Source: an uncultured Mycoplasmatota bacterium (GTDB taxonomy: Bacteria > Bacillota_I > Bacilli_A > RF39 > UBA660). From it: a stretch of DNA of 20,440 nucleotides. The notes under the pieces are model-generated. The model searched no databases, was not told where the DNA came from, and worked only from the letters and a program-made list of their open reading frames with translations. Positions 4,450 to 20,440 of this stretch are shown here, one piece after another; the first letter of the stretch is position 1; each line of letters begins with the position of its first letter. The DNA is taken from positions 1-20,440 of the forward strand of contig CANAXT010000025.1 in NCBI GenBank assembly GCA_947365915.1, in the 5' to 3' direction. Position numbers and translations under genes: made by a program.

Positions 4450-6357
4450 ATGCAGAAGTACACATTTGAAAACTTAAACCCATATAAAAATACAATTTAT
4501 CAAGAATTTTATCAAAAACTATTTCAAGAACTAGGAATTGGAGGTGATTTGTTAGGATTTCCAGCAAATTGTAAAACTGTATATAGAAAAGCGATTTACA
4601 TGCCACAAAGATTTATGAATGTTCTTACAACACGTTCTATGAAATCATCTAGCAAAAAAATCCAAACAGCGCATTCTTATAAAACCAGTGAAAGAATGAT
4701 TGATACAAGATATGAACATATGTGTTTTGCTTATATGTTAGGTGTAGATTTTTTATTAATATTAGAAAAAAACGGATATCAAATAGACGCTAAAACCCAA
4801 ATTGCCTTTCTATTAAAACTATTGTTACACGATAATGGACATGGCCCATTTTCTCATCCATTTGAACAAATGGTAGATGGTTATAAAGGAATGCATGAAG
4901 ACATCGGAAACCGAAACATCTTAGAAGATCCTGAACTATATCAACATTTAGAAAACATTTATCCTGGTTTAGCACACAATATCGTTCACTTTGAAGAAAT
5001 GGACAAGTATGGGTTACAAGAATTAGTAGAAGGAGTCTTTGATTTAGATAGAGCCTCATTTTTAATCATAGATACTTGGTTATCTAATTCAAAATTATAT
5101 CCAGAAAATACAGAAGAACAATTAGAAAAACTGATTGATTCCATCTATCACATTTTTGAGCACATCATTCTAAGAAATGGAAAAGTATACTATCATCCAG
5201 CATGTTTCTATGATGTTGAATTCTTTTTAAAAAAGCGTGCTTATAATTATATACATATTTATAATGGATTAGAGCGATTGCTAGATGATATGTTATTACA
5301 TCAATATGGGGTATATTTATTACAAAAGCAAAATACTAAGGCCTTTTTAAGACCATTATTAGAGCCAGTCGGAGAGTTTCAAAGTTTTTTAAAAGAGATT
5401 AAAGAAAAGCAAGCAATGATCGATTTAGAACAATACTTTCATTATAGTGATGATGATATGCACCGCATTGTCATGCTTTCTCAATTAATAGAAAATGAAA
5501 ACCTCGAAAAATATGCAAGATTATTTTTGTCTTCTGAATATAGAATGAAAATTCCATTTGATATAGAACAAGTAGATCAAAAAACATGGGAAAAAGAAAC
5601 AAAAGAAAATCCAAATCTAATGTCTGCCAAAACCAAAATCAATATTTATAAAAGTACCGAAAAAGAACACATCATATTTATGGATCCAAAAACAGGAGAA
5701 ACAACAGACTTTAAAGATATGAAAGAGCGAACCCTAAATATTGATCCAATACAAGCTTATTATTTATACCATGAAAGAAAACCCAAACAAATGTTAAAGC
5801 ATGATCAAAGATTAAGACACATATTGGAAGATTATTTTTATAAAAATGCCATACCAATTCTTCGAATCTGTTTAACATGGCAATACGAAAATGAAGAAAA
5901 TTCCATTTTAAATCATTTAATTCCGTTATTAATACATATTGCCAAAAATAAACCATTAGAAGAATATGCAATGACAAAACAAATCACAATGAAACAAGTA
6001 TATACATTATTATCCTTTTATAGTGGAGATGAAAAGTGGGAAAATTATGCAAACTTTTTAAGACTTTCTCCTGAAGATTTAAGCATTTGCTTTATGGAAA
6101 TCAAAGTAGATCATCAAACTTTTATATCAGAATTAGAATGTATTTTAAAAGATAATATACCACTCACAGAAGAAACCCATCCAATAGAAAATTTGATTCA
6201 AATGCTGTGTATTTTCGGGCATGATGAAACAATATTCATAGATCAAGCCATATTAGAATCCAATTACTTTTCAGAAGAAACTAGAAAACAGATAAAAGGC
6301 CAAATTAGGAAATATAAAATAGGAAACAGTGGATATCAAAAAAAATATAAAATCTAA
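4450..6357 (+). CDS. SAMHD1/dGTPase-like HD-domain protein (putative dNTP triphosphohydrolase) with a long uncharacterised C-terminal region
   Basis: Ordered motifs are R-Y-E-H-M (RxxH), LLLHDNGHGPFSHPFE (HD at 4828-4833 plus the GHGPFSH signature), MHEDIG, and FDLDRASFLIID (DxD-R-x-x-[FY]). This order is typical of the dGTPase/SAMHD1 clade. An SD-like GGTGAG lies upstream. Confidence 0.8.
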   Translation: MQKYTFENLNPYKNTIYQEFYQKLFQELGIGGDLLGFPANCKTVYRKAIYMPQRFMNVLTTRSMKSSSKKIQTAHSYKTSERMIDTRYEHMCFAYMLGVDFLLILEKNGYQIDAKTQIAFLLKLLLHDNGHGPFSHPFEQMVDGYKGMHEDIGNRNILEDPELYQHLENIYPGLAHNIVHFEEMDKYGLQELVEGVFDLDRASFLIIDTWLSNSKLYPENTEEQLEKLIDSIYHIFEHIILRNGKVYYHPACFYDVEFFLKKRAYNYIHIYNGLERLLDDMLLHQYGVYLLQKQNTKAFLRPLLEPVGEFQSFLKEIKEKQAMIDLEQYFHYSDDDMHRIVMLSQLIENENLEKYARLFLSSEYRMKIPFDIEQVDQKTWEKETKENPNLMSAKTKINIYKSTEKEHIIFMDPKTGETTDFKDMKERTLNIDPIQAYYLYHERKPKQMLKHDQRLRHILEDYFYKNAIPILRICLTWQYENEENSILNHLIPLLIHIAKNKPLEEYAMTKQITMKQVYTLLSFYSGDEKWENYANFLRLSPEDLSICFMEIKVDHQTFISELECILKDNIPLTEETHPIENLIQMLCIFGHDETIFIDQAILESNYFSEETRKQIKGQIRKYKIGNSGYQKKYKI

Positions 6358-6416: not shown

Positions 6417-6444
6417 TTGAAATATGCAAATATTATGATATAAT
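6417..6444 (+). promoter_or_regulatory. Putative sigma-A promoter of the avd-TR-RT unit (TTGAAA-N13-TGaTATAAT)
   Basis: The -35 TTGAAA is at 6417-6422 and the extended -10 TGATATAAT at 6436-6444, giving a 16-nt spacer. Confidence 0.5.
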
Positions 6445-6461: not shown

Positions 6462-7073
6462 ATGAAAGGGAAAGTGATAATAGTGCTCCAAGTAAGTAGA
6501 AATAATAACTTAAAAATACCAAAAAAAATAGAGATTGATCAAGAAAAGATCAATAGCACTAATGACAGACTATTTGTAAAACAAGCGATCAAGACTGCTA
6601 ATGATCAAAAATTTGATATATCAAAAGAAAAAGAGAATATTGAGTTTGACAAAGAATTAAAAAGAGTTGAAAAAATTCCAATGAACTCTAGTGAATTAAT
6701 GGTAATCACCATAGTAAAAAAACTCGGGGCTTATATTATTGCAATCACAGAAAAATCACCAGCAAAATTTCGGGGAGTTTTTGTAAATAGGATGCAAAAT
6801 CTAACATTAGAGGTATTAGAACTATTATTACAAGCCAATTTTGTAAGAATCGATAGTATAGAACGAAAAAAAGAAAGAGAAGAATTTCAAAAAAATGCGA
6901 TTATAAAATTAAAAATGTTAGGATATATCTCCATGGTAGCAGAAAATTCTGGCTGCATATTATCACGACAATTCAAACAAATATCAATTCAAATTGGAGA
7001 AGCAATTAATCTAATCGCTGCTTGGAAAAAAAGTGATGATAATAGATGGAAAAATAGAACAAAATTAGAATAA
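6462..7073 (+). CDS. avd: Avd-like accessory variability determinant (four-helix-bundle protein, 23S rRNA-intervening-sequence protein family) with an N-terminal extension
   Basis: The C-terminal ~130 aa (from M74 at 6681) read SPAKFRGVFVNRMQNLTLEVLELLLQANF...R...AIIKLKMLGYISMVAE...LSRQFKQISIQIGEAINLIAAWKKS. This fits the helical pattern of DGR Avd proteins, and the gene sits directly 5' of the TR and RT. The start is uncertain (ATG 6462, GTG 6474 or ATG 6681). Confidence 0.75.
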   Translation: MKGKVIIVLQVSRNNNLKIPKKIEIDQEKINSTNDRLFVKQAIKTANDQKFDISKEKENIEFDKELKRVEKIPMNSSELMVITIVKKLGAYIIAITEKSPAKFRGVFVNRMQNLTLEVLELLLQANFVRIDSIERKKEREEFQKNAIIKLKMLGYISMVAENSGCILSRQFKQISIQIGEAINLIAAWKKSDDNRWKNRTKLE

Positions 7074-7437
7074 TGGATTTTAAGTCGAAAGGCTTTTAAT
7101 TAAGTAGAACGTTTATAATGTTCCAATCTGCTTGGTGTGTTGGGCCCTCGTGTCCGCGCCGTCTAATGGAATGGAAATAAGAACAACAAATATAGATACG
7201 AACGCAATGGTGTTATTCGCCCAGATTTGCTTTTGAAGAGATTTATAAAATCTAGAAAACAGGTCAGAGAAATATATTTTAAGTAAAATATATCAGAACT
7301 TTAAAGCAAAGGAACGTTCTACTTTTCTAACCGCTATAATAGCGCGGTGGATAAAATAAGAGTGTTCACACCAACAACAATAGGGATTTCTATTTTTGAA
7401 GGTTATATGGGACACTTTTTTAATTTTAGGTGATAGA
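7074..7437 (+). ncRNA. DGR non-coding region (template repeat plus structured flanks/spacer)
   Basis: This is a 364-nt ORF-free gap between avd and the RT. It contains the TR-like segment, a 38-nt adenine-free GC-rich block (7127-7164), several perfect local hairpins and long-range complementary segments (see findings). Confidence 0.6.
7161..7230 (+). repeat. Candidate DGR template repeat (TR) core
   Basis: 27 of the 70 nt are A. Read in the frame of the matching gene segment it has five AAY codons. It aligns without gaps at 54/70 to 8782-8851 and to the three identical paralogous segments. Confidence 0.6.
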
Positions 7438-8457
7438 ATGAATTTAGAAGAAATATTTAGTTTTGAAAATTTATATGTAGCGCATCAAAAATGTAGAAAA
7501 TCAAAGCAACACAAACGAGAAGTAATTAGTTTTGAAACAAATATATCAGAAAATATTTATAAGTTACAAAAAAGTTTAGTATCAAGAAAATATACAGTAG
7601 GAAAATATAAAGAATTTACCATATACGAGCCGAAAGAAAGGCTTATACAAGCTCTTCCATATAAAGATAGAGTAATATTGAGATGCTTTTGTGATATAGT
7701 TTTGATTCCCAAAATAGAAAGTAAATTGATCAATGATAATGTAGCTTGTAGAAAAACAAAAGGAACAGATTACGGAATGAATCGTCTAGCCTTTTTTCTA
7801 AGAAAAGAATACATGAAAAAGAATGACAATAAAATTTATTATTTAAAATGTGATATAAAGAAGTATTTTCCTAGTATAGATCATGAGATACTATTAAAAT
7901 TATTAGAAAAAATCAATTTTTCGAATGATGAAAGATGGTTTATAGAGAAAATAATTAGAGAACAACCAGATAAGGCCAAAAAGGGATTGGCGTTAGGGAA
8001 TCAATCCAGTCAATGGTTCGCTTTATATTATTTAAATAGAATAGATCGATTCATTAAAGAAGAACTAAGAGTAAAATGGTATGTAAGATATATGGATGAT
8101 TTTATACTAATACATAGAGATAAAAAATTTTTACAATATTGTTTGTTAAGAATTGATGAAGTTTGCAAGCAAGAATTGAATATAGAATTAAATAAAAAAA
8201 CACAAATTGGACGAGTGTGTAATGGAATTGATTTTTTAGGATTTAGACATATACTTACAAGTAATGGAAAAATCATAAAAAGGCTTCGTCGCTCTTCGAA
8301 GAAAAGAATGATAAAACATATGAAAACAATATGTAAATTAAAGGAAAAAAGTATAATTGATGAAGAGTATATGAAAATGAGAATAAATGCTTATAAGGCG
8401 CATATTAAATATTCAAATGAGAAAAGATTAAAAGCTGAATTAAAAGAGTGGGAGTAA
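7438..8457 (+). CDS. DGR-class reverse transcriptase
   Basis: - **N-terminus:** ENLYVAHQKCRKSKQHKREV.
- **Early motifs:** YEPKERLIQALPYKDRV and ACRKTKGT.
- **DGR-diagnostic motif:** LALGNQSSQWFALYYLN ([ILV]GxxxSQ) at 7993-8013.
- **Catalytic motif:** YVRYMDDFILI, with YMDD at 8089-8100.
- **Late motif:** GIDFLGFR.
- **Start:** ATG 7438 is preceded by AGGTGA at 7428-7433, so the TTG at 7396 is unlikely to be the start. Confidence 0.9.
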   Translation: MNLEEIFSFENLYVAHQKCRKSKQHKREVISFETNISENIYKLQKSLVSRKYTVGKYKEFTIYEPKERLIQALPYKDRVILRCFCDIVLIPKIESKLINDNVACRKTKGTDYGMNRLAFFLRKEYMKKNDNKIYYLKCDIKKYFPSIDHEILLKLLEKINFSNDERWFIEKIIREQPDKAKKGLALGNQSSQWFALYYLNRIDRFIKEELRVKWYVRYMDDFILIHRDKKFLQYCLLRIDEVCKQELNIELNKKTQIGRVCNGIDFLGFRHILTSNGKIIKRLRRSSKKRMIKHMKTICKLKEKSIIDEEYMKMRINAYKAHIKYSNEKRLKAELKEWE

Positions 8458-8541: not shown

Positions 8542-10425
8542 ATGTTTGAACAACAATTAACATTAATGTCTGAAGGACAAATATGGGGAAATGATCAAGA
8601 AGCCCAGTTAGAAGTGATAAAAAAGTATGGATCAAAAGCGGCCATAACAGATCTAGCAATATTAACAGGTGCTTATGTGTGTGAAGATACTACCCGAAAT
8701 ATCAAAGAGGATAATAGTTTATCTGGAAGAGTTGGTTGGCAATGGACTCGATCAGATGATAGATATGGAGATGTCCTCGATGTCTCATGTACTGGAGATA
8801 AGAACATCAAATTTATCTGCTATCGCGCTGGTGTTATTCGTCCAGTTTTACAATCTTCTAACATTTTTTCATTAATTGTACCAAACAGAGTGAGAGGATA
8901 TAACGAGACAGAAGAAGTAGAATATGGAGAATATCCTCAGAATGCAGTAGAAAAAAATATGCAACAGCAATTAGGATCGGAATATATATCTGGAAATCTT
9001 TGCAAAACAGGAAGAAATTATACATTTGATTCTAGAAAGTATGATGATTATAGTAATGGTTTTTTAGGAATTACCTATGATGAATATGAATATGCAGGAA
9101 AAAAGTATATTCGAGTTCAAGCCAATTCTTGCTATGGTGGAAATGAATTTCAATTATCCAATGAAGAAAAATATAAAAATGGAGATTATGTTTGGATTGA
9201 AGTCCAACCAGTTAAATGGTTAATTGATGATAGAACAGGATTACTAATTTCTAAAAAAGGACTGCTATCAGGAATTCGATTTCTTGAGCGGGAGTCTAAA
9301 TATAACGGAGATTTTGATACAACTGAAATGAAAATGTATCTCGATGAACATATGTCAAAAGATTTATTTCAAACAGCATCTTTGAATTTGTCACAAAAAC
9401 CAAAACCTCAAAAAATAAAAAATCCTTATGGATTTGATTTTGGACAAGTGAGTGAAGAAGAAATTATTAAAGGTGCAATAGAAAGTAATGTACCAGTATT
9501 CTTACACGGACCCTCATCAGAGGGAAAAAGTGCTAGAGTCAAGCAAATTGATCCAACATGTGAGATTGTGTATTTGAGAAATGCGACACCAGAAAGTTTA
9601 AATGGAAAAAGTGTCTATAACGCAGAAACAGGAGAAATGATTGACATAGAACCAACATGGTTAAAAAAACTAAGAACCAAATGCGAAACAGAGCCAGATC
9701 GCTTACATATCTTATTTTTTGATGAGATCACAAATGCTTTACCAAGCATTCAAGGAAGTGCTTTTAATATCGTACTAGATAAAGAAGTAAATGGGACTTG
9801 GAAATTACCAGAAAACGCAAGAATTGTAGCTGCAGGAAATGAAATGAAGGATTCTCTAGCAGCGAACAAGTTAGCAGAACCACTATTTAATAGGTTCGCC
9901 CATGTTTATATTAAAACAACAACCGAATCATGGTTAAAATGGGCAAGTGAAAATAACATTCACCCAGCAATATACTGCTATATCGCCTATAAAAACGGAA
10001 CTACATTAAGAAGCAAATATGATGGAGAAAAGCCAAATGCGGATCCAAGAAAATGGGAAATGGCATCAAAAATGTTATATGCTACAAAAAATCCAGAGAT
10101 GTTACGAGCATTAGTCGGAGAAGAAATCACAAAAGAATTTGTAGCATTTTGTAAACAACAAGTAATTACATTAGAAGATGTAATTAATAGAAATTATACA
10201 AAAGAAAGTTTAGAACAATTAAATGTAGCTGAAAAAAGTGCAACCATTATAGGATTATCAGCTGTAGGAATAGAACACCTAGAAGAAGTAAGAGACTTTG
10301 CTTACTTCTTAGGAAAAGAATTTGGAGCCACATTTGATACCTTATGGGCTCATGGAGAAGAAGAAAGATTAGAAATGATTGCTGAACTGAAATTGCAAAA
10401 TAAACAAGGAGGTGTCAAAAAATAA
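8542..10425 (+). CDS. N-terminal putative ligand-binding domain fused to a MoxR/AAA_5-type ATPase (copy 1, putative DGR target)
   Basis: - **Size:** 627 aa.
- **ATPase half:** Walker A GPSSEGKS (9508-9531), Walker B ILFFDE (DE at 9721-9726), sensor-1-like IVAAGNE and EPLFNRF.
- **N-terminal ~290 aa:** GWQWTRSDD...GVIRPVL and WIEVQPVKWLIDD...LLISKK motifs, reminiscent of W-x-L-R-S / G-V-R-P-A-L domains of Firmicutes.
- **Start:** ATG 8542 (MFEQQ) is shared by all four copies and preceded by GGTGGTGAG. Confidence 0.9.
   Translation: MFEQQLTLMSEGQIWGNDQEAQLEVIKKYGSKAAITDLAILTGAYVCEDTTRNIKEDNSLSGRVGWQWTRSDDRYGDVLDVSCTGDKNIKFICYRAGVIRPVLQSSNIFSLIVPNRVRGYNETEEVEYGEYPQNAVEKNMQQQLGSEYISGNLCKTGRNYTFDSRKYDDYSNGFLGITYDEYEYAGKKYIRVQANSCYGGNEFQLSNEEKYKNGDYVWIEVQPVKWLIDDRTGLLISKKGLLSGIRFLERESKYNGDFDTTEMKMYLDEHMSKDLFQTASLNLSQKPKPQKIKNPYGFDFGQVSEEEIIKGAIESNVPVFLHGPSSEGKSARVKQIDPTCEIVYLRNATPESLNGKSVYNAETGEMIDIEPTWLKKLRTKCETEPDRLHILFFDEITNALPSIQGSAFNIVLDKEVNGTWKLPENARIVAAGNEMKDSLAANKLAEPLFNRFAHVYIKTTTESWLKWASENNIHPAIYCYIAYKNGTTLRSKYDGEKPNADPRKWEMASKMLYATKNPEMLRALVGEEITKEFVAFCKQQVITLEDVINRNYTKESLEQLNVAEKSATIIGLSAVGIEHLEEVRDFAYFLGKEFGATFDTLWAHGEEERLEMIAELKLQNKQGGVKK
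8782..8851 (+). repeat. Candidate variable repeat (VR) 1, codons 81-103 of ATPase copy 1
   Basis: It aligns without gaps to TR 7161-7230 at 54/70 identity. 11 of the 16 mismatches lie at TR adenines. Confidence 0.55.
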
Positions 10426-10796
10426 TGAAAGAAAAAAAAGAAGTATTATTATCTTATATGCAAGCCAATGTTGCTCCAATATTGGTAGACTTTATGACAG
10501 GAGAAGAAATTGGAGCTTCAATAATACTAGATGCCAAAATAGAAAAAACAGAATTAAACGGCCATTATGAAGGATTAGAATATTGTCCACCAAACTGGTT
10601 TACCAAGAATCCAAATCTATTAGTGATAGATAAAATAGACAAAATCGATAAAGAGGAACAACTAAAATTTTATGAATTATTAAAATATAGAAAAATATCA
10701 ACATTTGAATTATCGCCCAACTGTATTATCATTGTAACTGCCAAAGAAACAAAAAAGATCCATAAAGAATTGTATTCTTTAATGGCACAAATATAA
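10425..10796 (+). CDS. Small AAA+-like fragment protein lacking a Walker A motif
   Basis: The 123-aa product contains LLVIDKIDKIDKEEQLKFYELLKYRKI...NCIIIVTAKE, which looks like a Walker-B / sensor-1 segment of an AAA+ core (DKID instead of DEID) with no P-loop. Its ATG overlaps the upstream stop (TAATG), and AGGAGGTG at 10407-10414 serves as the SD. Confidence 0.7.
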   Translation: MKEKKEVLLSYMQANVAPILVDFMTGEEIGASIILDAKIEKTELNGHYEGLEYCPPNWFTKNPNLLVIDKIDKIDKEEQLKFYELLKYRKISTFELSPNCIIIVTAKETKKIHKELYSLMAQI

Positions 10797-10805
10797 AGGT
10801 GACTT

Positions 10806-12125
10806 ATGAAATATGATATTGAAGCAGTCAAACGAAAAATGTTGATTAAATATCCTTTTTTTGGTAGTGTCACTGCCAATGTAGACTATAAAGAAACAGT
10901 AGAAATAGATACTATGGCAACGGATGGAGAGACAATATATTATAATCGAAAATATGTAGAAACACTAGATCAATCAGAACAGATTTTTGTATTTGCGCAT
11001 GAAGTATGTCATATCGCTTTTAATCATATCATGAAAAGTGATGGAAAAGTTCCAAAAATATGGAATATGGCAACAGATGCAGTAATCAATCAATGGTTAA
11101 AAAAAGACAAATTAACAATGCCTCAGTCTGGAGTAAACATTGAAGATGCAATAAATTATGATGCCGAAGAATTATATGAAAAATTACTAGAAGAACAAGC
11201 AAAGAATCAACAAACGAAAAAGAATACAGAAGATCACCAATCTCAAGAACAACAAACCGAGGAAAAAGAAGAACAAGATGTTGGTCATGATACACATCGT
11301 ATGTGGCCAGAAGCAGTAAAAAAAAGAAAGCAGGAAGAAAAAACAGAAAATTCAGGAGAACAAAAACAAAATGATGAAGAAGAAAATGTAGTACGACAAA
11401 AACAAAAAGAATTAGAAAAATTGGGAGAAAGTGAATCTTTTTCAAAAAATCGTGAACTTAAAAAAAGAAATTTAGAAGAATTAAAGCGAGAAATTATAGA
11501 AAGTTCTCTACAAGCTGGAACAAAAACGAATGGAGAAACAAGAAGCTTAGAAAACATAGGAGCATCAAAACCACTAATTGATTGGAGATACATATTAAGA
11601 GAAACAATAAATTATGAAGTGGATTGGTCGTATAAAAATGCAACAATAGAAGATGGAGTTGTTACTCCATATTTAGAAGAACAACAAGTTCCAAAAACAG
11701 AGATTTTACTAGATACTAGTGAATCAGTCTCAACAGCATTGTTAAAAAACTTTGTAAGAGAATGTAAAAACATAGTGCAATATTCTAAAGTAGAAGTTGG
11801 TTGTTTTGATACAAGATTTTATGGATTTCATGAAATTAGAACAGAAGAAGACATAGAAAAAATGGACTATCAAGGTAGAGGAGGAACAGACTTTAATGTA
11901 GCAGTAGAAGCTTTTTCAAGAAGGGTAGAAAATAAAATTATTTTTACAGATGGACAAGCCCCTATGCCAGAAATGACAATCGATGCAATTTGGATTGTGT
12001 ATGGTGGTAAAAAGATAAAACCACGTGGTGGAAGAGTAATTCATATTACAGATGAACAACTGAAAAAATTACAATTTGGCGAGAAATCAAATGAATTAAA
12101 TGAAAACAAAAATAAACTGAAGTAA
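10806..12125 (+). CDS. DUF2201-type putative zinc metallopeptidase (HExxH) with a C-terminal VWA-like domain
   Basis: - **N-terminal part:** YPFFGSV...MATDGETIYYN...FVFAHEVCHIAFNH (HEVCH at 10998-11012)...WNMATDAVINQWL. This resembles the family I recall as Pfam DUF2201_N.
- **Linker:** E/K/Q-rich low-complexity region.
- **C-terminal part:** LLDTSESVS...GGTDF...IIFTDGQ, a VWA-like, MIDAS-like D-x-S-x-S pattern.
- **Context:** This is a typical partner of MoxR AAA+ ATPases. Confidence 0.85.
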   Translation: MKYDIEAVKRKMLIKYPFFGSVTANVDYKETVEIDTMATDGETIYYNRKYVETLDQSEQIFVFAHEVCHIAFNHIMKSDGKVPKIWNMATDAVINQWLKKDKLTMPQSGVNIEDAINYDAEELYEKLLEEQAKNQQTKKNTEDHQSQEQQTEEKEEQDVGHDTHRMWPEAVKKRKQEEKTENSGEQKQNDEEENVVRQKQKELEKLGESESFSKNRELKKRNLEELKREIIESSLQAGTKTNGETRSLENIGASKPLIDWRYILRETINYEVDWSYKNATIEDGVVTPYLEEQQVPKTEILLDTSESVSTALLKNFVRECKNIVQYSKVEVGCFDTRFYGFHEIRTEEDIEKMDYQGRGGTDFNVAVEAFSRRVENKIIFTDGQAPMPEMTIDAIWIVYGGKKIKPRGGRVIHITDEQLKKLQFGEKSNELNENKNKLK

Positions 12126-12131
12126 AATAAA

Positions 12132-12159
12132 TTGACTTTTAAGCAATTTATGATATAGT
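12132..12159 (+). promoter_or_regulatory. Putative sigma-A promoter of ATPase copy 2 (TTGACT-N13-TGaTATAGT)
   Basis: The -35 TTGACT is at 12132-12137 and the extended -10 TGATATAGT at 12151-12159. It lies 7 nt after the stop of the VWA gene. Confidence 0.6.
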
Positions 12160-12177: not shown

Positions 12178-14061
12178 ATGTTTGAACAACAATTAACATT
12201 AATGTCTGAAGGACAAATATGGGGAAATGATCAAGAAGCCCAGTTAGAAGTGATAAAAAAGTATGGATCAAAAGCGGCCATAACAGATCTAGCAATATTA
12301 ACAGGTGCTTATGTGTGTGAAGATACTACCCGAAATATCAAAGAGGATAATAGTTTATCTGGAAGAGTTGGTTGGCAATGGACTCGATCAGATGATAGAT
12401 ATGGAGATGTCCTCGATGTCTCATGTACTGGAGATAAGAACATCAAATTTATCTGCTATCGCGCTGGTGTTATTCGTCCAGTTTTACAATCTTCTAACAT
12501 TTTTTCATTAATTGTACCAAACAGAGTGAGAGGATATAACGAGACAGAAGAAGTAGAATATGGAGAATATCCTCAGAATGCAGTAGAAAAAAATATGCAA
12601 CAGCAATTAGGATCGGAATATATATCTGGAAATCTTTGCAAAACAGGAAGAAATTATACATTTGATTCTAGAAAGTATGATGATTATAGTAATGGTTTTT
12701 TAGGAATTACCTATGATGAATATGAATATGCAGGAAAAAAGTATATTCGAGTTCAAGCCAATTCTTGCTATGGTGGAAATGAATTTCAATTATCCAATGA
12801 AGAAAAATATAAAAATGGAGATTATGTTTGGATTGAAGTCCAACCAGTTAAATGGTTAATTGATGATAGAACAGGATTACTAATTTCTAAAAAAGGACTG
12901 CTATCAGGAATTCGATTTCTTGAGCGGGAGTCTAAATATAACGGAGATTTTGATACAACTGAAATGAAAATGTATCTCGATGAACATATGTCAAAAGATT
13001 TATTTCAAACAGCATCTTTGAATTTGTCACAAAAACCAAAACCTCAAAAAATAAAAAATCCTTATGGATTTGATTTTGGACAAGTGAGTGAAGAAGAAAT
13101 TATTAAAGGTGCAATAGAAAGTAATGTACCAGTATTCTTACACGGACCCTCATCAGAGGGAAAAAGTGCTAGAGTCAAGCAAATTGATCCAACATGTGAG
13201 ATTGTGTATTTGAGAAATGCGACACCAGAAAGTTTAAATGGAAAAAGTGTCTATAACGCAGAAACAGGAGAAATGATTGACATAGAACCAACATGGTTAA
13301 AAAAACTAAGAACCAAATGCGAAACAGAGCCAGATCGCTTACATATCTTATTTTTTGATGAGATCACAAATGCTTTACCAAGCATTCAAGGAAGTGCTTT
13401 TAATATCGTACTAGATAAAGAAGTAAATGGGACTTGGAAATTACCAGAAAACGCAAGAATTGTAGCTGCAGGAAATGAAATGAAGGATTCTCTAGCAGCG
13501 AACAAGTTAGCAGAACCACTATTTAATAGGTTCGCCCATGTTTATATTAAAACAACAACCGAATCATGGTTAAAATGGGCAAGTGAAAATAACATTCACC
13601 CAGCAATATACTGCTATATCGCCTATAAAAACGGAACTACATTAAGAAGCAAATATGATGGAGAAAAGCCAAATGCGGATCCAAGAAAATGGGAAATGGC
13701 ATCAAAAATGTTATATGCTACAAAAAATCCAGAGATGTTACGAGCATTAGTCGGAGAAGAAATCACAAAAGAATTTGTAGCATTTTGTAAACAACAAGTA
13801 ATTACATTAGAAGATGTAATTAATAGAAATTATACAAAAGAAAGTTTAGAACAATTAAATGTAGCTGAAAAAAGTGCAACCATTATAGGATTATCAGCTG
13901 TAGGAATAGAACACCTAGAAGAAGTAAGAGACTTCGCTTACTTCTTAGGAAAAGAATTTGGGGCTACATTTGATACATTATGGACTCACAGAGAAGAAGA
14001 ACGATTAGAAATAATTGCAGAACTGAAAGCAAAACAAAAAGAATATAGAATTGCTATATAA
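12178..14061 (+). CDS. Ligand-binding domain / MoxR-type AAA+ ATPase fusion (copy 2)
   Basis: The product is identical to copy 1 at the protein level through residue ~590. It then has a diverged C-terminal tail (TLWTHREEERLEIIAELKAKQKEYRIAI). ATG 12178 is preceded by GGTGA. Confidence 0.9.
   Translation: MFEQQLTLMSEGQIWGNDQEAQLEVIKKYGSKAAITDLAILTGAYVCEDTTRNIKEDNSLSGRVGWQWTRSDDRYGDVLDVSCTGDKNIKFICYRAGVIRPVLQSSNIFSLIVPNRVRGYNETEEVEYGEYPQNAVEKNMQQQLGSEYISGNLCKTGRNYTFDSRKYDDYSNGFLGITYDEYEYAGKKYIRVQANSCYGGNEFQLSNEEKYKNGDYVWIEVQPVKWLIDDRTGLLISKKGLLSGIRFLERESKYNGDFDTTEMKMYLDEHMSKDLFQTASLNLSQKPKPQKIKNPYGFDFGQVSEEEIIKGAIESNVPVFLHGPSSEGKSARVKQIDPTCEIVYLRNATPESLNGKSVYNAETGEMIDIEPTWLKKLRTKCETEPDRLHILFFDEITNALPSIQGSAFNIVLDKEVNGTWKLPENARIVAAGNEMKDSLAANKLAEPLFNRFAHVYIKTTTESWLKWASENNIHPAIYCYIAYKNGTTLRSKYDGEKPNADPRKWEMASKMLYATKNPEMLRALVGEEITKEFVAFCKQQVITLEDVINRNYTKESLEQLNVAEKSATIIGLSAVGIEHLEEVRDFAYFLGKEFGATFDTLWTHREEERLEIIAELKAKQKEYRIAI
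12418..12487 (+). repeat. Candidate VR 2
   Basis: By visual comparison it has the same 70-nt sequence as 8782-8851. Confidence 0.5.
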
Positions 14062-14099: not shown

Positions 14100-14127
14100 T
14101 TGACTTTTAAACAATTTATGATATAGT
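14100..14127 (+). promoter_or_regulatory. Putative sigma-A promoter of ATPase copy 3
   Basis: TTGACT-N13-TGATATAGT. This is a duplicate of the copy 2 promoter with one base substitution in the spacer. Confidence 0.6.
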
Positions 14128-14144
14128 AATAGCCGGTGATGATA

Positions 14145-16028
14145 ATGTTTGAACAACAATTAACATTAATGTCTGAAGGACAAATATGGGGAAATGATCA
14201 AGAAGCCCAGTTAGAAGTGATAAAAAAGTATGGATCAAAAGCGGCCATAACAGATCTAGCAATATTAACAGGTGCTTATGTGTGTGAAGATACTACCCGA
14301 AATATCAAAGAGGATAATAGTTTATCTGGAAGAGTTGGTTGGCAATGGACTCGATCAGATGATAGATATGGAGATGTCCTCGATGTCTCATGTACTGGAG
14401 ATAAGAACATCAAATTTATCTGCTATCGCGCTGGTGTTATTCGTCCAGTTTTACAATCTTCTAACATTTTTTCATTAATTGTACCAAACAGAGTGAGAGG
14501 ATATAACGAGACAGAAGAAGTAGAATATGGAGAATATCCTCAGAATGCAGTAGAAAAAAATATGCAACAGCAATTAGGATCGGAATATATATCTGGAAAT
14601 CTTTGCAAAACAGGAAGAAATTATACATTTGATTCTAGAAAGTATGATGATTATAGTAATGGTTTTTTAGGAATTACCTATGATGAATATGAATATGCAG
14701 GAAAAAAGTATATTCGAGTTCAAGCCAATTCTTGCTATGGTGGAAATGAATTTCAATTATCCAATGAAGAAAAATATAAAAATGGAGATTATGTTTGGAT
14801 TGAAGTCCAACCAGTTAAATGGTTAATTGATGATAGAACAGGATTACTAATTTCTAAAAAAGGACTGCTATCAGGAATTCGATTTCTTGAGCGGGAGTCT
14901 AAATATAACGGAGATTTTGATACAACTGAAATGAAAATGTATCTCGATGAACATATGTCAAAAGATTTATTTCAAACAGCATCTTTGAATTTGTCACAAA
15001 AACCAAAACCTCAAAAAATAAAAAATCCTTATGGATTTGATTTTGGACAAGTGAGTGAAGAAGAAATTATTAAAGGTGCAATAGAAAGTAATGTACCAGT
15101 ATTCTTACACGGACCCTCATCAGAGGGAAAAAGTGCTAGAGTCAAGCAAATTGATCCAACATGTGAGATTGTGTATTTGAGAAATGCGACACCAGAAAGT
15201 TTAAATGGAAAAAGTGTCTATAACGCAGAAACAGGAGAAATGATTGACATAGAACCAACATGGTTAAAAAAACTAAGAACCAAATGCGAAACAGAGCCAG
15301 ATCGCTTACATATCTTATTTTTTGATGAGATCACAAATGCTTTACCAAGCATTCAAGGAAGTGCTTTTAATATCGTACTAGATAAAGAAGTAAATGGGAC
15401 TTGGAAATTACCAGAAAACGCAAGAATTGTAGCTGCAGGAAATGAAATGAAGGATTCTCTAGCAGCGAACAAGTTAGCAGAACCACTATTTAATAGGTTC
15501 GCCCATGTTTATATTAAAACAACAACCGAATCATGGTTAAAATGGGCAAGTGAAAATAACATTCACCCAGCAATATACTGCTATATCGCCTATAAAAACG
15601 GAACTACATTAAGAAGCAAATATGATGGAGAAAAGCCAAATGCGGATCCAAGAAAATGGGAAATGGCATCAAAAATGTTATATGCTACAAAAAATCCAGA
15701 GATGTTACGAGCATTAGTCGGAGAAGAAATCACAAAAGAATTTGTAGCATTTTGTAAACAACAAGTAATTACATTAGAAGATGTAATTAATAGAAATTAT
15801 ACAAAAGAAAGTTTAGAACAATTAAATGTAGCTGAAAAAAGTGCAACCATTATAGGATTATCAGCTGTAGGAATAGAACACCTAGAAGAAGTAAGAGACT
15901 TCGCTTACTTCTTAGGAAAAGAATTTGGGGCTACATTTGATACATTATGGACTCACAGAGAAGAAGAACGATTAGAAATAATTGCAGAACTGAAAGCAAA
16001 ACAAAAAGAATATAGAATTGCTATATAA
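14145..16028 (+). CDS. Ligand-binding domain / MoxR-type AAA+ ATPase fusion (copy 3)
   Basis: The protein is identical to copy 2 over all 627 aa. The flanking intergenic sequence is also identical. Confidence 0.9.
   Translation: MFEQQLTLMSEGQIWGNDQEAQLEVIKKYGSKAAITDLAILTGAYVCEDTTRNIKEDNSLSGRVGWQWTRSDDRYGDVLDVSCTGDKNIKFICYRAGVIRPVLQSSNIFSLIVPNRVRGYNETEEVEYGEYPQNAVEKNMQQQLGSEYISGNLCKTGRNYTFDSRKYDDYSNGFLGITYDEYEYAGKKYIRVQANSCYGGNEFQLSNEEKYKNGDYVWIEVQPVKWLIDDRTGLLISKKGLLSGIRFLERESKYNGDFDTTEMKMYLDEHMSKDLFQTASLNLSQKPKPQKIKNPYGFDFGQVSEEEIIKGAIESNVPVFLHGPSSEGKSARVKQIDPTCEIVYLRNATPESLNGKSVYNAETGEMIDIEPTWLKKLRTKCETEPDRLHILFFDEITNALPSIQGSAFNIVLDKEVNGTWKLPENARIVAAGNEMKDSLAANKLAEPLFNRFAHVYIKTTTESWLKWASENNIHPAIYCYIAYKNGTTLRSKYDGEKPNADPRKWEMASKMLYATKNPEMLRALVGEEITKEFVAFCKQQVITLEDVINRNYTKESLEQLNVAEKSATIIGLSAVGIEHLEEVRDFAYFLGKEFGATFDTLWTHREEERLEIIAELKAKQKEYRIAI
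14385..14454 (+). repeat. Candidate VR 3
   Basis: Same 70-nt sequence as 8782-8851. Confidence 0.5.
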
Positions 16029-16066: not shown

Positions 16067-16094
16067 TTGACTTTTAAACAATTTATGATATAGT
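16067..16094 (+). promoter_or_regulatory. Putative sigma-A promoter of ATPase copy 4
   Basis: TTGACT-N13-TGATATAGT, identical to the copy 3 promoter. Confidence 0.6.
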
Positions 16095-16111: not shown

Positions 16112-17992
16112 ATGTTTGAACAACAATTAACATTAATGTCTGAAGGACAAATATGGGGAAATGATCAAGAAGCCCAGTTAGAAGTGATAAAAAAGTATGG
16201 ATCAAAAGCGGCCATAACAGATCTAGCAATATTAACAGGTGCTTATGTGTGTGAAGATACTACCCGAAATATCAAAGAGGATAATAGTTTATCTGGAAGA
16301 GTTGGTTGGCAATGGACTCGATCAGATGATAGATATGGAGATGTCCTCGATGTCTCATGTACTGGAGATAAGAACATCAAATTTATCTGCTATCGCGCTG
16401 GTGTTATTCGTCCAGTTTTACAATCTTCTAACATTTTTTCATTAATTGTACCAAACAGAGTGAGAGGATATAACGAGACAGAAGAAGTAGAATATGGAGA
16501 ATATCCTCAGAATGCAGTAGAAAAAAATATGCAACAGCAATTAGGATCGGAATATATATCTGGAAATCTTTGCAAAACAGGAAGAAATTATACATTTGAT
16601 TCTAGAAAGTATGATGATTATAGTAATGGTTTTTTAGGAATTACCTATGATGAATATGAATATGCAGGAAAAAAGTATATTCGAGTTCAAGCCAATTCTT
16701 GCTATGGTGGAAATGAATTTCAATTATCCAATGAAGAAAAATATAAAAATGGAGATTATGTTTGGATTGAAGTCCAACCAGTTAAATGGTTAATTGATGA
16801 TAGAACAGGATTACTAATTTCTAAAAAAGGACTGCTATCAGGAATTCGATTTCTTGAGCGGGAGTCTAAATATAACGGAGATTTTGATACAACTGAAATG
16901 AAAATGTATCTCGATGAACATATGTCAAAAGATTTATTTCAAACAGCATCTTTGAATTTGTCACAAAAACCAAAACCTCAAAAAATAAAAAATCCTTATG
17001 GATTTGATTTTGGACAAGTGAGTGAAGAAGAAATTATTAAAGGTGCAATAGAAAGTAATGTACCAGTATTCTTACACGGACCCTCATCAGAGGGAAAAAG
17101 TGCTAGAGTCAAGCAAATTGATCCAACATGTGAGATTGTGTATTTGAGAAATGCGACACCAGAAAGTTTAAATGGAAAAAGTGTCTATAACGCAGAAACA
17201 GGAGAAATGATTGACATAGAACCAACATGGTTAAAAAAACTAAGAACCAAATGCGAAACAGAGCCAGATCGCTTACATATCTTATTTTTTGATGAGATCA
17301 CAAATGCTTTACCAAGCATTCAAGGAAGTGCTTTTAATATCGTACTAGATAAAGAAGTAAATGGGACTTGGAAATTACCAGAAAACGCAAGAATTGTAGC
17401 TGCAGGAAATGAAATGAAGGATTCTCTAGCAGCGAACAAGTTAGCAGAACCACTATTTAATAGGTTCGCCCATGTTTATATTAAAACAACAACCGAATCA
17501 TGGTTAAAATGGGCAAGTGAAAATAACATTCACCCAGCAATATACTGCTATATCGCCTATAAAAACGGAACTACATTAAGAAGCAAATATGATGGAGAAA
17601 AGCCAAATGCGGATCCAAGAAAATGGGAAATGGCATCAAAAATGTTATATGCTACAAAAAATCCAGAGATGTTACGAGCATTAGTCGGAGAAGAAATCAC
17701 AAAAGAATTTGTAGCATTTTGTAAACAACAAGTAATTACATTAGAAGATGTAATTAATAGAAATTATACAAAAGAAAGTTTAGAACAATTAAATGTAGCT
17801 GAAAAAAGTGCAACCATTATAGGATTATCAGCTGTAGGAATAGAACACCTAGAAGAAGTAAGAGACTTTGCTTACTTCTTAGGAAAAGAATTTGGAGCCA
17901 CATTTGATACATTATGGACTCACGGAGAAGAAGAACGATTAGAAATAATTGCAGAATTGAAGGCAAAACAAAAAGTGAAAATAAAAAATTAG
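16112..17992 (+). CDS. Ligand-binding domain / MoxR-type AAA+ ATPase fusion (copy 4)
   Basis: The 626-aa product is identical to the other copies except for the last ~30 residues (TLWTHGEEERLEIIAELKAKQKVKIKN). Confidence 0.9.
   Translation: MFEQQLTLMSEGQIWGNDQEAQLEVIKKYGSKAAITDLAILTGAYVCEDTTRNIKEDNSLSGRVGWQWTRSDDRYGDVLDVSCTGDKNIKFICYRAGVIRPVLQSSNIFSLIVPNRVRGYNETEEVEYGEYPQNAVEKNMQQQLGSEYISGNLCKTGRNYTFDSRKYDDYSNGFLGITYDEYEYAGKKYIRVQANSCYGGNEFQLSNEEKYKNGDYVWIEVQPVKWLIDDRTGLLISKKGLLSGIRFLERESKYNGDFDTTEMKMYLDEHMSKDLFQTASLNLSQKPKPQKIKNPYGFDFGQVSEEEIIKGAIESNVPVFLHGPSSEGKSARVKQIDPTCEIVYLRNATPESLNGKSVYNAETGEMIDIEPTWLKKLRTKCETEPDRLHILFFDEITNALPSIQGSAFNIVLDKEVNGTWKLPENARIVAAGNEMKDSLAANKLAEPLFNRFAHVYIKTTTESWLKWASENNIHPAIYCYIAYKNGTTLRSKYDGEKPNADPRKWEMASKMLYATKNPEMLRALVGEEITKEFVAFCKQQVITLEDVINRNYTKESLEQLNVAEKSATIIGLSAVGIEHLEEVRDFAYFLGKEFGATFDTLWTHGEEERLEIIAELKAKQKVKIKN
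16352..16421 (+). repeat. Candidate VR 4
   Basis: Same 70-nt sequence as 8782-8851. Confidence 0.5.
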
Positions 17993-18124: not shown

Positions 18125-19066
18125 ATGGAAAAAAATGAAATGGATAGTTTATCTATTTACTTAAGAGATATAAAGGCATGCGGACCACTATTAACCAAAG
18201 GGCAAGAACAAGAACTTACAATAAAAGCAAGTCTTGGTGATGCAAATGCCAAACAAATTTTATTAGAACATAATTTACCACTCGTTGTTAGTAGAGCAAA
18301 AAGATATGCTGTTCATGGGATACCAATAGAAGATCTCATTCAAGAGGGGAATATAGGATTATTAAAAGCAATAGAAAGCTTTAACCCAGAAGTAGGAACA
18401 AGGCTTTCAACTTATGCAGTACCCAAAATAGATCGGCAAATACAAATGGCGTATGAAACATCTTCTAGAATTATCAAAGTTTCTGCTGAAACATATAAAA
18501 TGATTCAAAAACTAAAAACAATGGAAACCATGTTATCAGGAAGATTATATCGAAATCCTAACTTACAAGAACTAGCATATTCATTAAAAATAACAGAAGA
18601 AGAATGTGACTTCTTGATGCAAATAAAACAAGACGCTATGAGCTTACATGCACCAAAATCACAAAACGAAAAAGAAGAAGAATACCTAATTGAACCAAGT
18701 ACTGGATATTTAGAAGAAGGCCTACTAGAGCAATTCATGAAAGATGAAATAATAAACTTACTTTCAATATTAAAAGAAAGAGAACAAGAAATCGCAGTTA
18801 TGCTGTTTGGGCTAGGAGAAACTAGACCAAGAGACGGCGCTGAAATTGGAAGACAATACAATATAACAAGAAGAAGAGTGCATCAAATAAAAGCAACAAT
18901 TATCAAAAAATTGAGACAAGCACCAGGAATAGACGCAATGAGTGTATACATGGATAATCCAGAAGAAGCAATGAAAAATCTAGAATACTATAGAGAATAC
19001 TATAGAACTTCAACGAAAAGATATACAATACCAATGGAACGACCAAAAGAATATATCAAAAAATAA
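18125..19066 (+). CDS. Sigma-70 family RNA polymerase sigma factor (group 3-like) with a C-terminal extension
   Basis: Region 1.2/2 reads YLRDIKACGPLLTKGQEQEL...LPLVVSRAKRY...IEDLIQEGNIGLLKAIESFNPEVGTRLSTYAVPKI. Region 4 reads REQEIAVMLFGL...GAEIGRQYNITRRRVHQIKATIIKKLR. About 45 further residues follow region 4. Confidence 0.85.
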   Translation: MEKNEMDSLSIYLRDIKACGPLLTKGQEQELTIKASLGDANAKQILLEHNLPLVVSRAKRYAVHGIPIEDLIQEGNIGLLKAIESFNPEVGTRLSTYAVPKIDRQIQMAYETSSRIIKVSAETYKMIQKLKTMETMLSGRLYRNPNLQELAYSLKITEEECDFLMQIKQDAMSLHAPKSQNEKEEEYLIEPSTGYLEEGLLEQFMKDEIINLLSILKEREQEIAVMLFGLGETRPRDGAEIGRQYNITRRRVHQIKATIIKKLRQAPGIDAMSVYMDNPEEAMKNLEYYREYYRTSTKRYTIPMERPKEYIKK

Positions 19067-19081
19067 AAAGGGGAAGAACTT

Positions 19082-20440
19082 ATGAATGAAAAACAGGATA
19101 CTATATTTGATCAATTATACGAACAACATTTTTTCTTAACTTCTTCTAAAGAAGTCTTTTTTGAAACTTTAGAACAAGAAATTAAAACAAACATTCGTAT
19201 ATATCAAGGAAGCAATGGACAATATAAAAAGCGATTAGATAGATCTATTCCTAGAATATATCAAAAACAAAGAAAACAGCAAGAAAGAACCATTGAAGCA
19301 ATGAAAATATGTGTAGAAAACTTTGACACATTTGAAGAATTTATTCAATTTTATAATCAAGGAAAATATCCAGTGAATGTGACAATTTGTGCTGAAATAA
19401 TAGAATCTAGTGAATGGCTACGAACAACATTAGAAACTATTATAGATCAAAACCAAGAAAAAATAGAATGTGGTGACTTTGAAGCAATTAGCTATTCAGA
19501 AGTATACATTACATTTCTAATTGCTTACTGTGAACTATATGAAATTGAATATACAAGTCCAAAAGAAGAAAAAAACAGGACAAGCTTAGAAGCATATTTA
19601 TCTGATATGGATCACTTAAGCTTAACGGAAGAAGATGATGAATTACTTTTAAAAAAAGCCCAAAACGGAAACCAAAAAGCAAAAAATGAATTTCTAGAAA
19701 AACACTTGAAACTTCCACTTTTTCTAGCCAGAGAATATCAATATGGAATTACTCCCTTAGAAGACCGAATTCAAGAAGCAAACATAGGACTAATAAATGC
19801 AAGCGAATATTATGACCCAAAAAAAGAAACAACCTTTTCCTATTATGCATCATTCTGCATCAAAAGAAGTATAAAAAGATATCTAAGAAAAAATGAATAC
19901 TTGGGACAACTCTCAGAAACACAATATTTAATGTATTTAAAATATAGGAGATTAAAAGAAAAATGGGAAGACAGAGAACCTGTATCATTAGAAGTGATTG
20001 CCAAAGAACTGAATTTATCATTAGACGAAATAAAACTCTTTCAATATTTTGAACAAAATTCAGTCTATTTAGAAGAAACCGACGTAGATGATACACAAAT
20101 AGATAACTGTATCAAACAAATGGACTTTGAAAGCAACTTATACCCATTATTTGAACGAGCTCATTTATCACAAATACAGATTCAAACATTAGAACAATAC
20201 TTTGGATTGAAAAATGGACAACCAATCCCTTCACAATCAAAAATAGCAAGAATATGGGGAGTAAAACCACAAGCAATTCAAGAAAGACTGGAAAGATCAA
20301 TGTCACTTCTTAGAAACACAAGACACATAAAAGATTGGGCTGATTATATGGAAGATCCAAAAGAAGCCTTACATAATCTAGAAAAATTCCAAAAAAAATA
20401 TGTAAAAAAAATAGATAGGGGGGAATCAATATGGAAGTAA
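19082..20440 (+). CDS. Sigma-70 family sigma factor paralog with a ~190-aa N-terminal extension and the same C-terminal tail
   Basis: Region 2 reads LKLPLFLAREYQYGITPLEDRIQEANIGLINASEYYDPKKETTFSYYASFCIKRSI. Region 4 reads LSQIQIQTLEQYFGL...QSKIARIWGVKPQAIQERLERSMSLLR. The stop codon TAA occupies the last three bases of the window. Confidence 0.8.
   Translation: MNEKQDTIFDQLYEQHFFLTSSKEVFFETLEQEIKTNIRIYQGSNGQYKKRLDRSIPRIYQKQRKQQERTIEAMKICVENFDTFEEFIQFYNQGKYPVNVTICAEIIESSEWLRTTLETIIDQNQEKIECGDFEAISYSEVYITFLIAYCELYEIEYTSPKEEKNRTSLEAYLSDMDHLSLTEEDDELLLKKAQNGNQKAKNEFLEKHLKLPLFLAREYQYGITPLEDRIQEANIGLINASEYYDPKKETTFSYYASFCIKRSIKRYLRKNEYLGQLSETQYLMYLKYRRLKEKWEDREPVSLEVIAKELNLSLDEIKLFQYFEQNSVYLEETDVDDTQIDNCIKQMDFESNLYPLFERAHLSQIQIQTLEQYFGLKNGQPIPSQSKIARIWGVKPQAIQERLERSMSLLRNTRHIKDWADYMEDPKEALHNLEKFQKKYVKKIDRGESIWK

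Follow-up and report, generated by a model that had tools for sequence, protein, structure and literature searches.

We analysed a stretch of DNA of 20,440 nt from an uncultured Mycoplasmatota bacterium (GTDB Bacillota_I; Bacilli_A; RF39; UBA660), namely positions 1–20,440 of the forward strand of contig CANAXT010000025.1 in assembly GCA_947365915.1. This whole stretch is called the window here. Between 8542 and 12125 its forward strand (+) carries an operon of three genes which encode, in this order, an AAA+ ATPase, the 123-amino-acid (aa) product of a small open reading frame (ORF) and a 439-aa protein that combines a zincin-type metallopeptidase with a VWA domain (the zincin-VWA protein). 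Directly upstream of the ATPase gene lie an avd gene, a template repeat (TR) and a reverse transcriptase (RT) gene, components of a diversity-generating retroelement (DGR) whose variable repeat (VR) falls within the ATPase gene (Table 1). As a short earlier note on this DNA had described, the TAA stop of the ATPase gene and the ATG of the 123-aa ORF overlap by one base within a TAATG at 10423–10427; an AAGGAGG motif lies 13 nt upstream of that ATG. The note had also placed a gap of nine nucleotides before a DUF2201-type HExxH/VWA protein. Both the gap (10797–10805, AGGTGACTT) and the protein were borne out, the latter by a Pfam match and by a conserved HExxH motif and metal ion-dependent adhesion site (MIDAS). 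Profile searches, a check suggested in the note, upheld the assignments of all three operon proteins. Reading the three translations by eye, with no predictor run, we saw neither a signal peptide nor a transmembrane segment. The three-gene system is probably cytoplasmic, and it is conserved in gut Bacilli and some Clostridia.

The zincin-VWA protein matched Pfam DUF2201_N (E 2e-32, 113.3 bits versus a cut-off of 23.2), the VWA-like Pfam family DUF2201 (E 1.7e-13, 51.2 bits versus 26.4) and, over its full length, phrog_1314 (E 4e-63). Its HExxHxxxxH motif reads HEVCHIAFNH (aa 65–74, 10998–11027) and the MIDAS is complete, with D303xS305xS307 (DxSxS at 11712–11726), T361 and D382. Among 62 homologues, H65, E66, H69 and H74 of the metallopeptidase motif and all residues of the MIDAS are at least 95% conserved. 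In phrog_1314 and in several phage records (NC_019516.2, NC_028799.1, MK797984.1), DUF2201-type zincin-VWA proteins are called 'HNH endonuclease' or 'homing endonuclease'; this labelling looks like a propagated misannotation.

In the ATPase, residues 307–558 matched phrog_1297 'ATPase' (E 2.8e-45). This module holds a Walker A motif (GPSSEGKS, aa 323–330, 9508–9531), a Walker B motif (FFDE, aa 392–395; site 9709–9726) and the sensor-1 asparagine N433, each of which is at least 95% conserved across 78 sequences. Judged by its sequence, the protein belongs to the broad MoxR/McrB/AAA_5 group of AAA+ ATPases and carries an N-terminal extension of ~280 residues. MoxR ATPases pair with VWA partners. 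The name 'MoxR-type', used in the earlier note, is plausible chiefly because the ATPase has a VWA partner, but it is not established: the VWA/MIDAS protein is indeed encoded in the same operon, whereas a match to the family profile was not obtained (scores below).

The 123-aa ORF encodes, as far as sequence comparison can tell, a catalytically dead paralogue of the AAA core of the ATPase itself. This assignment rests on four observations. Residues 6–122 aligned by hhalign with ATPase residues 307–454 (probability 90.5%, E 1.4e-6); the P-loop segment is absent from the ORF in this alignment; 'IDK' stands at the position of the Walker B 'FDE' of the ATPase; and seven of ten homologues matched Pfam AAA or AAA_5, weakly and below threshold, over the part from Walker B to sensor 1 only. 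The product is thus P-loop-less and AAA-like, as had been noted earlier, but it is not a fragment: length and sequence are kept across about 60 loci, which rules out a broken pseudogene piece and marks the ORF as a real gene.

Residues 1 to ~105 of the ATPase make up a small domain (the N-domain), whose last strands and loops (aa 78–103) are the VR. AlphaFold models of the N-terminus were confident, with a predicted local distance difference test score (pLDDT) of 91.3 for residues 1–300, of 91 over residues 1–280 and of 83.5 for residues 1–110. In a Foldseek search against BFVD, the best match was an unnamed 97-aa protein (probability 0.99, target TM-score 0.57), which is not significant, and a DUF6273 protein was matched weakly; the N-domain profile found nothing among solved structures. 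Of all Pfam families, DUF6273 alone gave matches to the N-termini of homologues (6 of 47 and 5 of 35). The best of these matches scored 28.1 bits versus a cut-off of 23.5 (E 2e-6) and covered aa 3–98 on profile positions 83–168 of 172, in the C-terminal half of the profile. DUF6273 is a C-type-lectin-like domain that is diversified by DGRs of gut Firmicutes phages, with the VR at its C-terminal end (PMC10743442, PMC11792537). The phage RT closest to that of the window (39% identity) is from phage nd12, where the target gene follows directly after the RT and has an N-terminal DUF6273 VR (see also PMC10743442). A VR at the N-terminus is a known but uncommon arrangement (PMC5758913, PMC10743442). 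We call the VR-bearing domain 'distantly DUF6273-like'. A C-type lectin fold is not claimed for it, as no Foldseek match against PDB or BFVD was significant.

Besides the avd match given in Table 1, Pfam bAvd and NCBIfam DivGenRetAVD matched the avd product below their cut-offs. The RT matched Pfam RVT_1 (E 1e-14) and phrog_1423 (E 3.6e-103), and direct reading of its translation showed LGNQSSQ and YMDD motifs; GNQSSQ and YMDD mark the RTs of DGRs. TR and VR are identical at 60 of 78 positions, while 200 shuffles gave a mean of 39.7 and a maximum of 44. Of the 18 mismatches, 11 fall on TR adenines (Fisher p 0.009) and 7 on G or C, and the VR reads CTC GAT where relatives hold CGC GCG in TR and VR alike. 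Three further copies of the ATPase gene are present, each with a promoter-like site before it. All four copies are nucleotide-identical for 1757 nt from the ATG, VR included, and their last ~130 nt differ by 15–20%; the upstream promoter regions of copies 2 and 3 differ at 2 of 43 nt. The sharp boundary of identity near 10299 suggests gene conversion or homogenisation in assembly or polishing. Homing replaces the non-adenine positions of a VR with TR sequence. The seven non-adenine mismatches and four identical VRs of the window therefore argue for a long period without homing: very probably there was none after the copies were homogenised, and the element looks dormant though avd and RT are intact.

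Table 1. Features of the operon, the DGR and the ATPase copies in the window.
Feature	Position	Strand	Remarks
Promoter-like site upstream of avd	6417–6444	+	TTGAAA, 16 nt, TG-TATAAT; 11/12, best of the region; consensus match only
avd, DGR accessory protein	6462–7073	+	203 aa; phrog_3206 'Avd protein of DGR', E 3.3e-13
Template repeat (TR)	7151–7228	+	60/78 identity to VR
DGR reverse transcriptase	7435–8457	+	340 aa from ATG; listed ORF from TTG 7396
ATPase copy 1	8542–10425	+	627 aa; ATG at 8542, stop ends 10425; N-terminal VR-bearing domain, beta-rich middle domain, AAA+ module
Variable repeat (VR) of copy 1	8772–8849	+	Encodes ATPase aa 78–103
123-aa predicted degenerate AAA-core paralogue without Walker A	10425–10796	+	hhalign match to ATPase core; sub-threshold Pfam matches
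Zincin metallopeptidase + VWA protein	10806–12125	+	439 aa from ATG 10806; DUF2201_N, DUF2201, phrog_1314
Promoter-like site of ATPase copy 2	12132–12159	+	TTGACT, 16 nt, TG-TATAGT; recurs at 14100–14127 and 16067–16094
ATPase copy 2	12178–14061	+	VR 12408–12485; no nucleotide differences from copy 1 over 8542–10298
ATPase copy 3	14145–16028	+	VR 14375–14452; identical to copy 2 over 1,900 nt in register
ATPase copy 4	16112–17992	+	VR 16342–16419; own 3' end

The full-length ATPase architecture proved to be common, with 2,638 proteins at E<=1e-5 and 571 clusters (50% identity) at E<=1e-30. A scan of species-representative genomes yielded 76 loci besides the window, all of which were searched again with five proteins of the window; DGRs were tallied over 78 loci, and the absence of an upstream RT was judged in the 56 loci with at least 3 kb of upstream sequence. 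The loci come mainly from metagenome-assembled genomes of gut 'Bacilli'/'Tenericutes' (CAG:417, CAG:605, Faecisoma) and in some cases from Clostridia (Zhenpiania, Lentihominibacter). ATPase and zincin-VWA protein occur in nearly all of them, and the small ORF is found in the Bacilli group but not in the Clostridia group. When the ORFs flanking about 78 loci were clustered, the recurrent families were the ATPase (79), the zincin-VWA protein (72), the small ORF (61), the RT (14) and Avd (12). A cluster from 20 loci consisted of alternative-frame ORFs within the zincin-VWA gene, and apart from it no further family occurred in more than seven loci. The core therefore consists of three genes, and the zincin is the only candidate for an output enzyme.

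The earlier note had proposed surveying the neighbourhoods of homologous operons for RT genes, and such operons do carry DGRs: an intact RT was found in 12 of the 78 loci, the window included, and RT remnants lie directly upstream of the ATPase gene in seven more. In eight loci with an intact RT, every mismatch between TR and VR fell on an adenine (12/12, 10/10, 12/12, 10/10, 14/14, 8/8, 10/10 and 14/14, together 90/90). In a related species, the sequences P0013 and P0027 show 100% identity everywhere but in the VR, where about eight residues differ. Entropy among ATPase homologues is highest at aa 82–96, which is the most variable stretch of 15 residues in RT-positive and RT-negative loci alike, and the AAA module is the most conserved part. 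The VR stretch is accordingly the most variable part of the ATPase, in agreement with the variable N-terminal domain that had been postulated as opposed to a fixed housekeeping fold. By the adenine-only mismatches and the VR-focused variability in relatives, the DGR is real for the family.

The 3' end of the repeats was compared in ten intact-RT loci whose alignment reaches the last variable codon (L007, L013, L015, L016, L020, L024, L034, L040, L064 and the window, 7225 / 8846); in L050 the TR/VR alignment ends before this codon. At the last variable adenine, the TR codon is GAT and the VR codon GCT (Ala) in nine of the ten, the exception being the window, where the VR has GTT (Val). TR/VR homology stops ~5 nt past this adenine. 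This implies strong selection at the last variable codon and a 3' homology that is unusually short for an internal VR.

The seven remnants are truncated RTs of 98–288 of 340 residues (L001, L008, L011, L014, L023, L027 and L037), and the loci that hold them are snapshots of DGR decay. In the L001 lineage, one VR is common to about 50 of 57 sequences and the TR/VR pair of L001 has three non-adenine mismatches; here the VR is frozen. Decay of this kind may have reached the window as well. On such a view, which we hold to be rather probable, its DGR is a dormant or decaying relic, the VR is frozen and the operon is no longer programmable, with the ATPase copies stemming from recent tandem amplification, gene conversion or homogenisation in assembly or polishing. 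This concerns active programmability only and leaves the anatomy of the operon untouched. The share of non-adenine mismatches points in this direction, being 7/18 in the window versus 0/90 in the loci with a clean DGR, and CTC GAT in place of the relatives' CGC GCG points to ordinary drift since the last homing. The same view is favoured by the four copies without a difference over 1757 nt including the VR, next to last ~130 nt that are 15–20% apart, and by the frequency of decay in the family, as seen in the seven remnant loci and the L001 lineage. However, avd and RT are intact ORFs in a genome of 30% GC where stops arise easily, the enrichment of adenines among the mismatches is still significant (p 0.009), and VR variants of low frequency would be invisible in a single consensus assembly.

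In ten of the loci that lack an RT, the ATPase gene has tandem paralogues, and copies that could be compared mostly differ in the VR stretch. In one of them (L025, 889–14627), the order is ATPase-ATPase-small ORF-VWA-ATPase-ATPase-small ORF-VWA-ATPase-ATPase, and each of the five ATPase copies compared has a different VR-equivalent peptide. Another locus (L081; 8001–9092 and 9991–11076) encodes two tandem proteins of 361–363 aa that consist of the N-domain part only, with housekeeping neighbours and without ATPase, VWA or DGR. Given these stand-alone proteins, the N-domain is an independent module.

We explain the locus as a DGR-linked three-gene system in which the N-domain acts as a sensor for an ATP-driven zincin-VWA protein, the element in the window being dormant, and give this explanation as a whole a probability of about 0.5. 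The ATPase would assemble as a ring, with the dead AAA subunit as a structural or regulatory partner in it. By analogy with other MoxR-VWA pairs, the VWA domain would dock on the ring through its MIDAS and so place the metallopeptidase alongside. The ligand of the hypervariable N-domain might then be an intracellular protein, with a phage or another invader as its most plausible source, and binding could either deliver the ligand for ATP-driven remodelling and cleavage or switch the peptidase on. Specificity would be renewed by mutagenic homing of the DGR where this is intact, and elsewhere be stored in ATPase paralogues that stand in tandem and differ in their VRs. A wider proposal, which we make tentatively and consider possible rather than probable, is that the family represents an undescribed class of bacterial immune-like systems that is widespread among small-genome gut Bacilli. 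Its members would recognise and destroy proteins by means of a rewritable, antibody-like receptor mounted on an AAA+ motor with a zincin-VWA protease, and would draw their diversity from somatic DGR hypermutation or from germline-like arrays.

If the function proposed here is correct, DGR-diversified intracellular sensors reach beyond multicellular cyanobacteria and Gammaproteobacteria to abundant, uncultured gut Bacilli with reduced genomes. They would do so in a different design, with the variable receptor on the motor protein and a metallopeptidase as the only enzyme output. The loci with intact, decaying or no DGR and those with paralogue arrays form a series for studying how hypermutation and amplification replace each other. 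With some 26 residues determining what it binds, so compact a module of three genes would also make an attractive, engineerable targeting device.

Several results weigh against the sensor-protease explanation. With regard to the parts of the ATPase, neither the 300- nor the 110-residue N-domain model had a Foldseek match in the PDB with E<0.1; the N-domain of the window itself did not match the DUF6273 profile at E<=1, and BLASTP and hhalign detected no similarity between it and the nd12 target. The ATPase scored 16.6 bits against Pfam AAA_5 (cut-off 22), which is below threshold, as was its score against Sigma54_activat (16.7 bits, cut-off 20.2). The AAA-module profile found McrB as its best match among solved structures, at E 0.003 only, and this weak match is restricted to the region from Walker B to sensor 1; with single sequences of the AAA module and the zincin-VWA protein, searches against solved structures gave nothing useful. 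As to the context, none of the three operon proteins had a match in PADLOC or NCBIfam, the silence of PADLOC being the adverse part of this result. The genes flanking the operon in relatives are housekeeping genes (pheST, rimM/trmD, rpsP) that differ between species, and we found no defence islands around the loci, the flanks in long contigs being housekeeping genes. No RT was present in 37 of the 56 loci judged for it. The system can thus do without hypermutation, as the majority of loci have no DGR; the element is an add-on to the three-gene operon that is optional and often in decay.

Some of these results would equally fit a system that takes no part in conflict at all, namely a chaperone or maturation system of the MoxR-VWA type, or a dedicated protease, which acts on an endogenous substrate and whose N-domain tunes the choice of substrate or partner. 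Classical MoxR-VWA pairs are maturation chaperones (PMC7159879), and the housekeeping chromosomal neighbours, the lack of a PADLOC match and the absence of the DGR from most loci are in keeping with such a role. Hypermutation and paralogue arrays that act on one and the same surface patch would, however, be unexpected if the client were endogenous and always the same; the neighbourhood contains no conserved gene for a client, and the genomic position is not kept between species. We consider an endogenous role unlikely.

The module might alternatively derive from phages and serve a mobile element, either as a chaperone for virion or tail assembly with peptidolytic processing and a tentaclin-like receptor-binding domain, or as a prophage device for superinfection exclusion. 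Relatives of the AAA module were found in 720 phage records, several of them annotated as 'MoxR-like ATPase', and relatives of the zincin-VWA protein in 340; both operon proteins match phage families (phrog_1297, phrog_1314), the pair has been described in jumbo phages (PMC7824862), and the closest RT is from a phage with a DUF6273-type target. A Phage_GPD fragment also lies at the start of the window. But these relatives, ATPases and zincin-VWA proteins alike, share only 25–31% identity with the operon proteins and come without the N-domain, for which tblastn found no match in 50,697 phage records. Furthermore, no structural, integrase or lysis gene recurs beside the operon in about 78 loci, the flanks in long contigs are bacterial housekeeping genes, and nothing in the three translations, read by eye, pointed to an association with virions or to export. 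On this balance a phage-serving role appears very improbable. For the family, a prophage context is ruled out by the housekeeping flanks and the lack of a recurrent phage gene.

The Phage_GPD match, to a baseplate-hub fragment, is an ORF at 5–691 that is overlapped by a DUF3048 ORF (640–1437). Positions 1–700 have a GC content of 0.43 versus about 0.29 in the remainder of the window, and this end of the contig may mark a junction left by recombination or else a chimera of the assembly. A gene at 4450–6357 (+), immediately before the DGR, encodes a protein of 635 aa without a Pfam match. It contains the motif HDNGHGPFSH, and phmmer matched it to the HD-domain phosphohydrolase 2q14 (E 2.8e-7) and to the 'HD domain protein' entries 2o6i/3irh/4lrl (E 1.3e-5), which we take to be Enterococcus EF1143, a deoxynucleoside triphosphate (dNTP) triphosphohydrolase. 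The 635-aa protein is possibly a dNTPase similar to SAMHD1 whose C-terminus is much extended; in other loci it is not a conserved neighbour of the operon. The ATPase array is closely followed by two tandem genes of the sigma-70 family (18125–19066 and 19082–20440). They have 71% nucleotide identity over region 2, and the second carries an N-terminal extension of ~200 aa.

That a DGR may diversify the sensor of a MoxR-vWA conflict module is, as a general idea, already published: lectin-like domains that DGRs diversify have been suggested to act as the sensors of such systems (PMC7159879, PMC10907252). The earlier note, which knew of no described DGR that diversifies the N-terminal domain of a MoxR-VWA-metallopeptidase module, needs correction in this respect; only the present architecture looks undescribed. 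Our search of the literature for DGRs together with DUF2201, PF13203, PF09967, AAA_5 or metallopeptidases, in which the coverage of subscription journals was sparse, did not find it. The nearest published counterparts are the VMAP ternary systems of cyanobacteria and Gammaproteobacteria, which comprise a MoxR ATPase, a vWA protein and VMAP (Kaur et al. 2020, PMC7159879; Dore et al. 2024, PMC10907252). As in those systems, a DGR here diversifies a domain, presumably lectin-like and ligand-binding, within an AAA+/vWA module that is plausibly of the MoxR type. Also shared are the predictions of a cytoplasmic target and of a peptidase as output, and the proposal of the variable domain as a sensor. 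In VMAP systems, however, the variable domain is of the FGE/C-lectin type and lies at the C-terminus of the vWA protein or on a separate target, and the MoxR ATPase is separate and invariant, whereas here the VR sits on the ATPase and its domain is DUF6273-like. The operon described here lacks VMAP as well as any effector of the trypsin, caspase or TIR kind; its peptidase is a zincin that forms one protein with the VWA domain, and its only recurrent third gene is the additional, dead AAA-core subunit. VMAP hosts are multicellular bacteria, unlike the small-genome gut Bacilli of this family. The operon is not a VMAP ternary system, though it follows a similar logic.

The arrangement of TR, RT and then a target with the VR near its 5' end is shared with the tentaclins and other DUF6273 targets of DGRs (nd4/nd12, PMC10743442; Faecalibacterium prophages, PMC11792537). 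The VR likewise occupies the C-terminal part of a DUF6273-like domain, and it is the nd12 RT that comes closest among phages. Tentaclins, however, continue into Ig-like domains and are receptor-binding proteins of the virion, whereas in the family studied here the variable domain is joined to a beta-rich domain and to an AAA+ ATPase, in a protein encoded by a chromosomal operon.

Jumbo phages (group 2.2) and N4-like phages encode a MoxR AAA+ ATPase with a metallopeptidase-vWA protein, described as a chaperone/co-chaperone pair with a peptidase (PMC7824862). This pair resembles the operon in its homologous AAA module, in the DUF2201_N + DUF2201 partner and in the pairing of the two genes, but its ATPases lack the N-terminal variable domain and the DGR, identity is only 25–31% and the role proposed for it is virion assembly (PMC7824862). 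McrBC, finally, is similar in that an N-terminal variable recognition domain is carried by an AAA+ ring protein and the effector is encoded separately; here, in contrast, there is no McrC-type nuclease, and the partner is a VWA-zincin. In the literature searched, an ATPase whose only enzyme partner is a zincin-VWA protein, an additional dead AAA subunit and a variable domain of DUF6273-like ancestry appear to be undescribed, and the same appears to hold for gut Bacilli as hosts and for a DGR that alternates with paralogue arrays.

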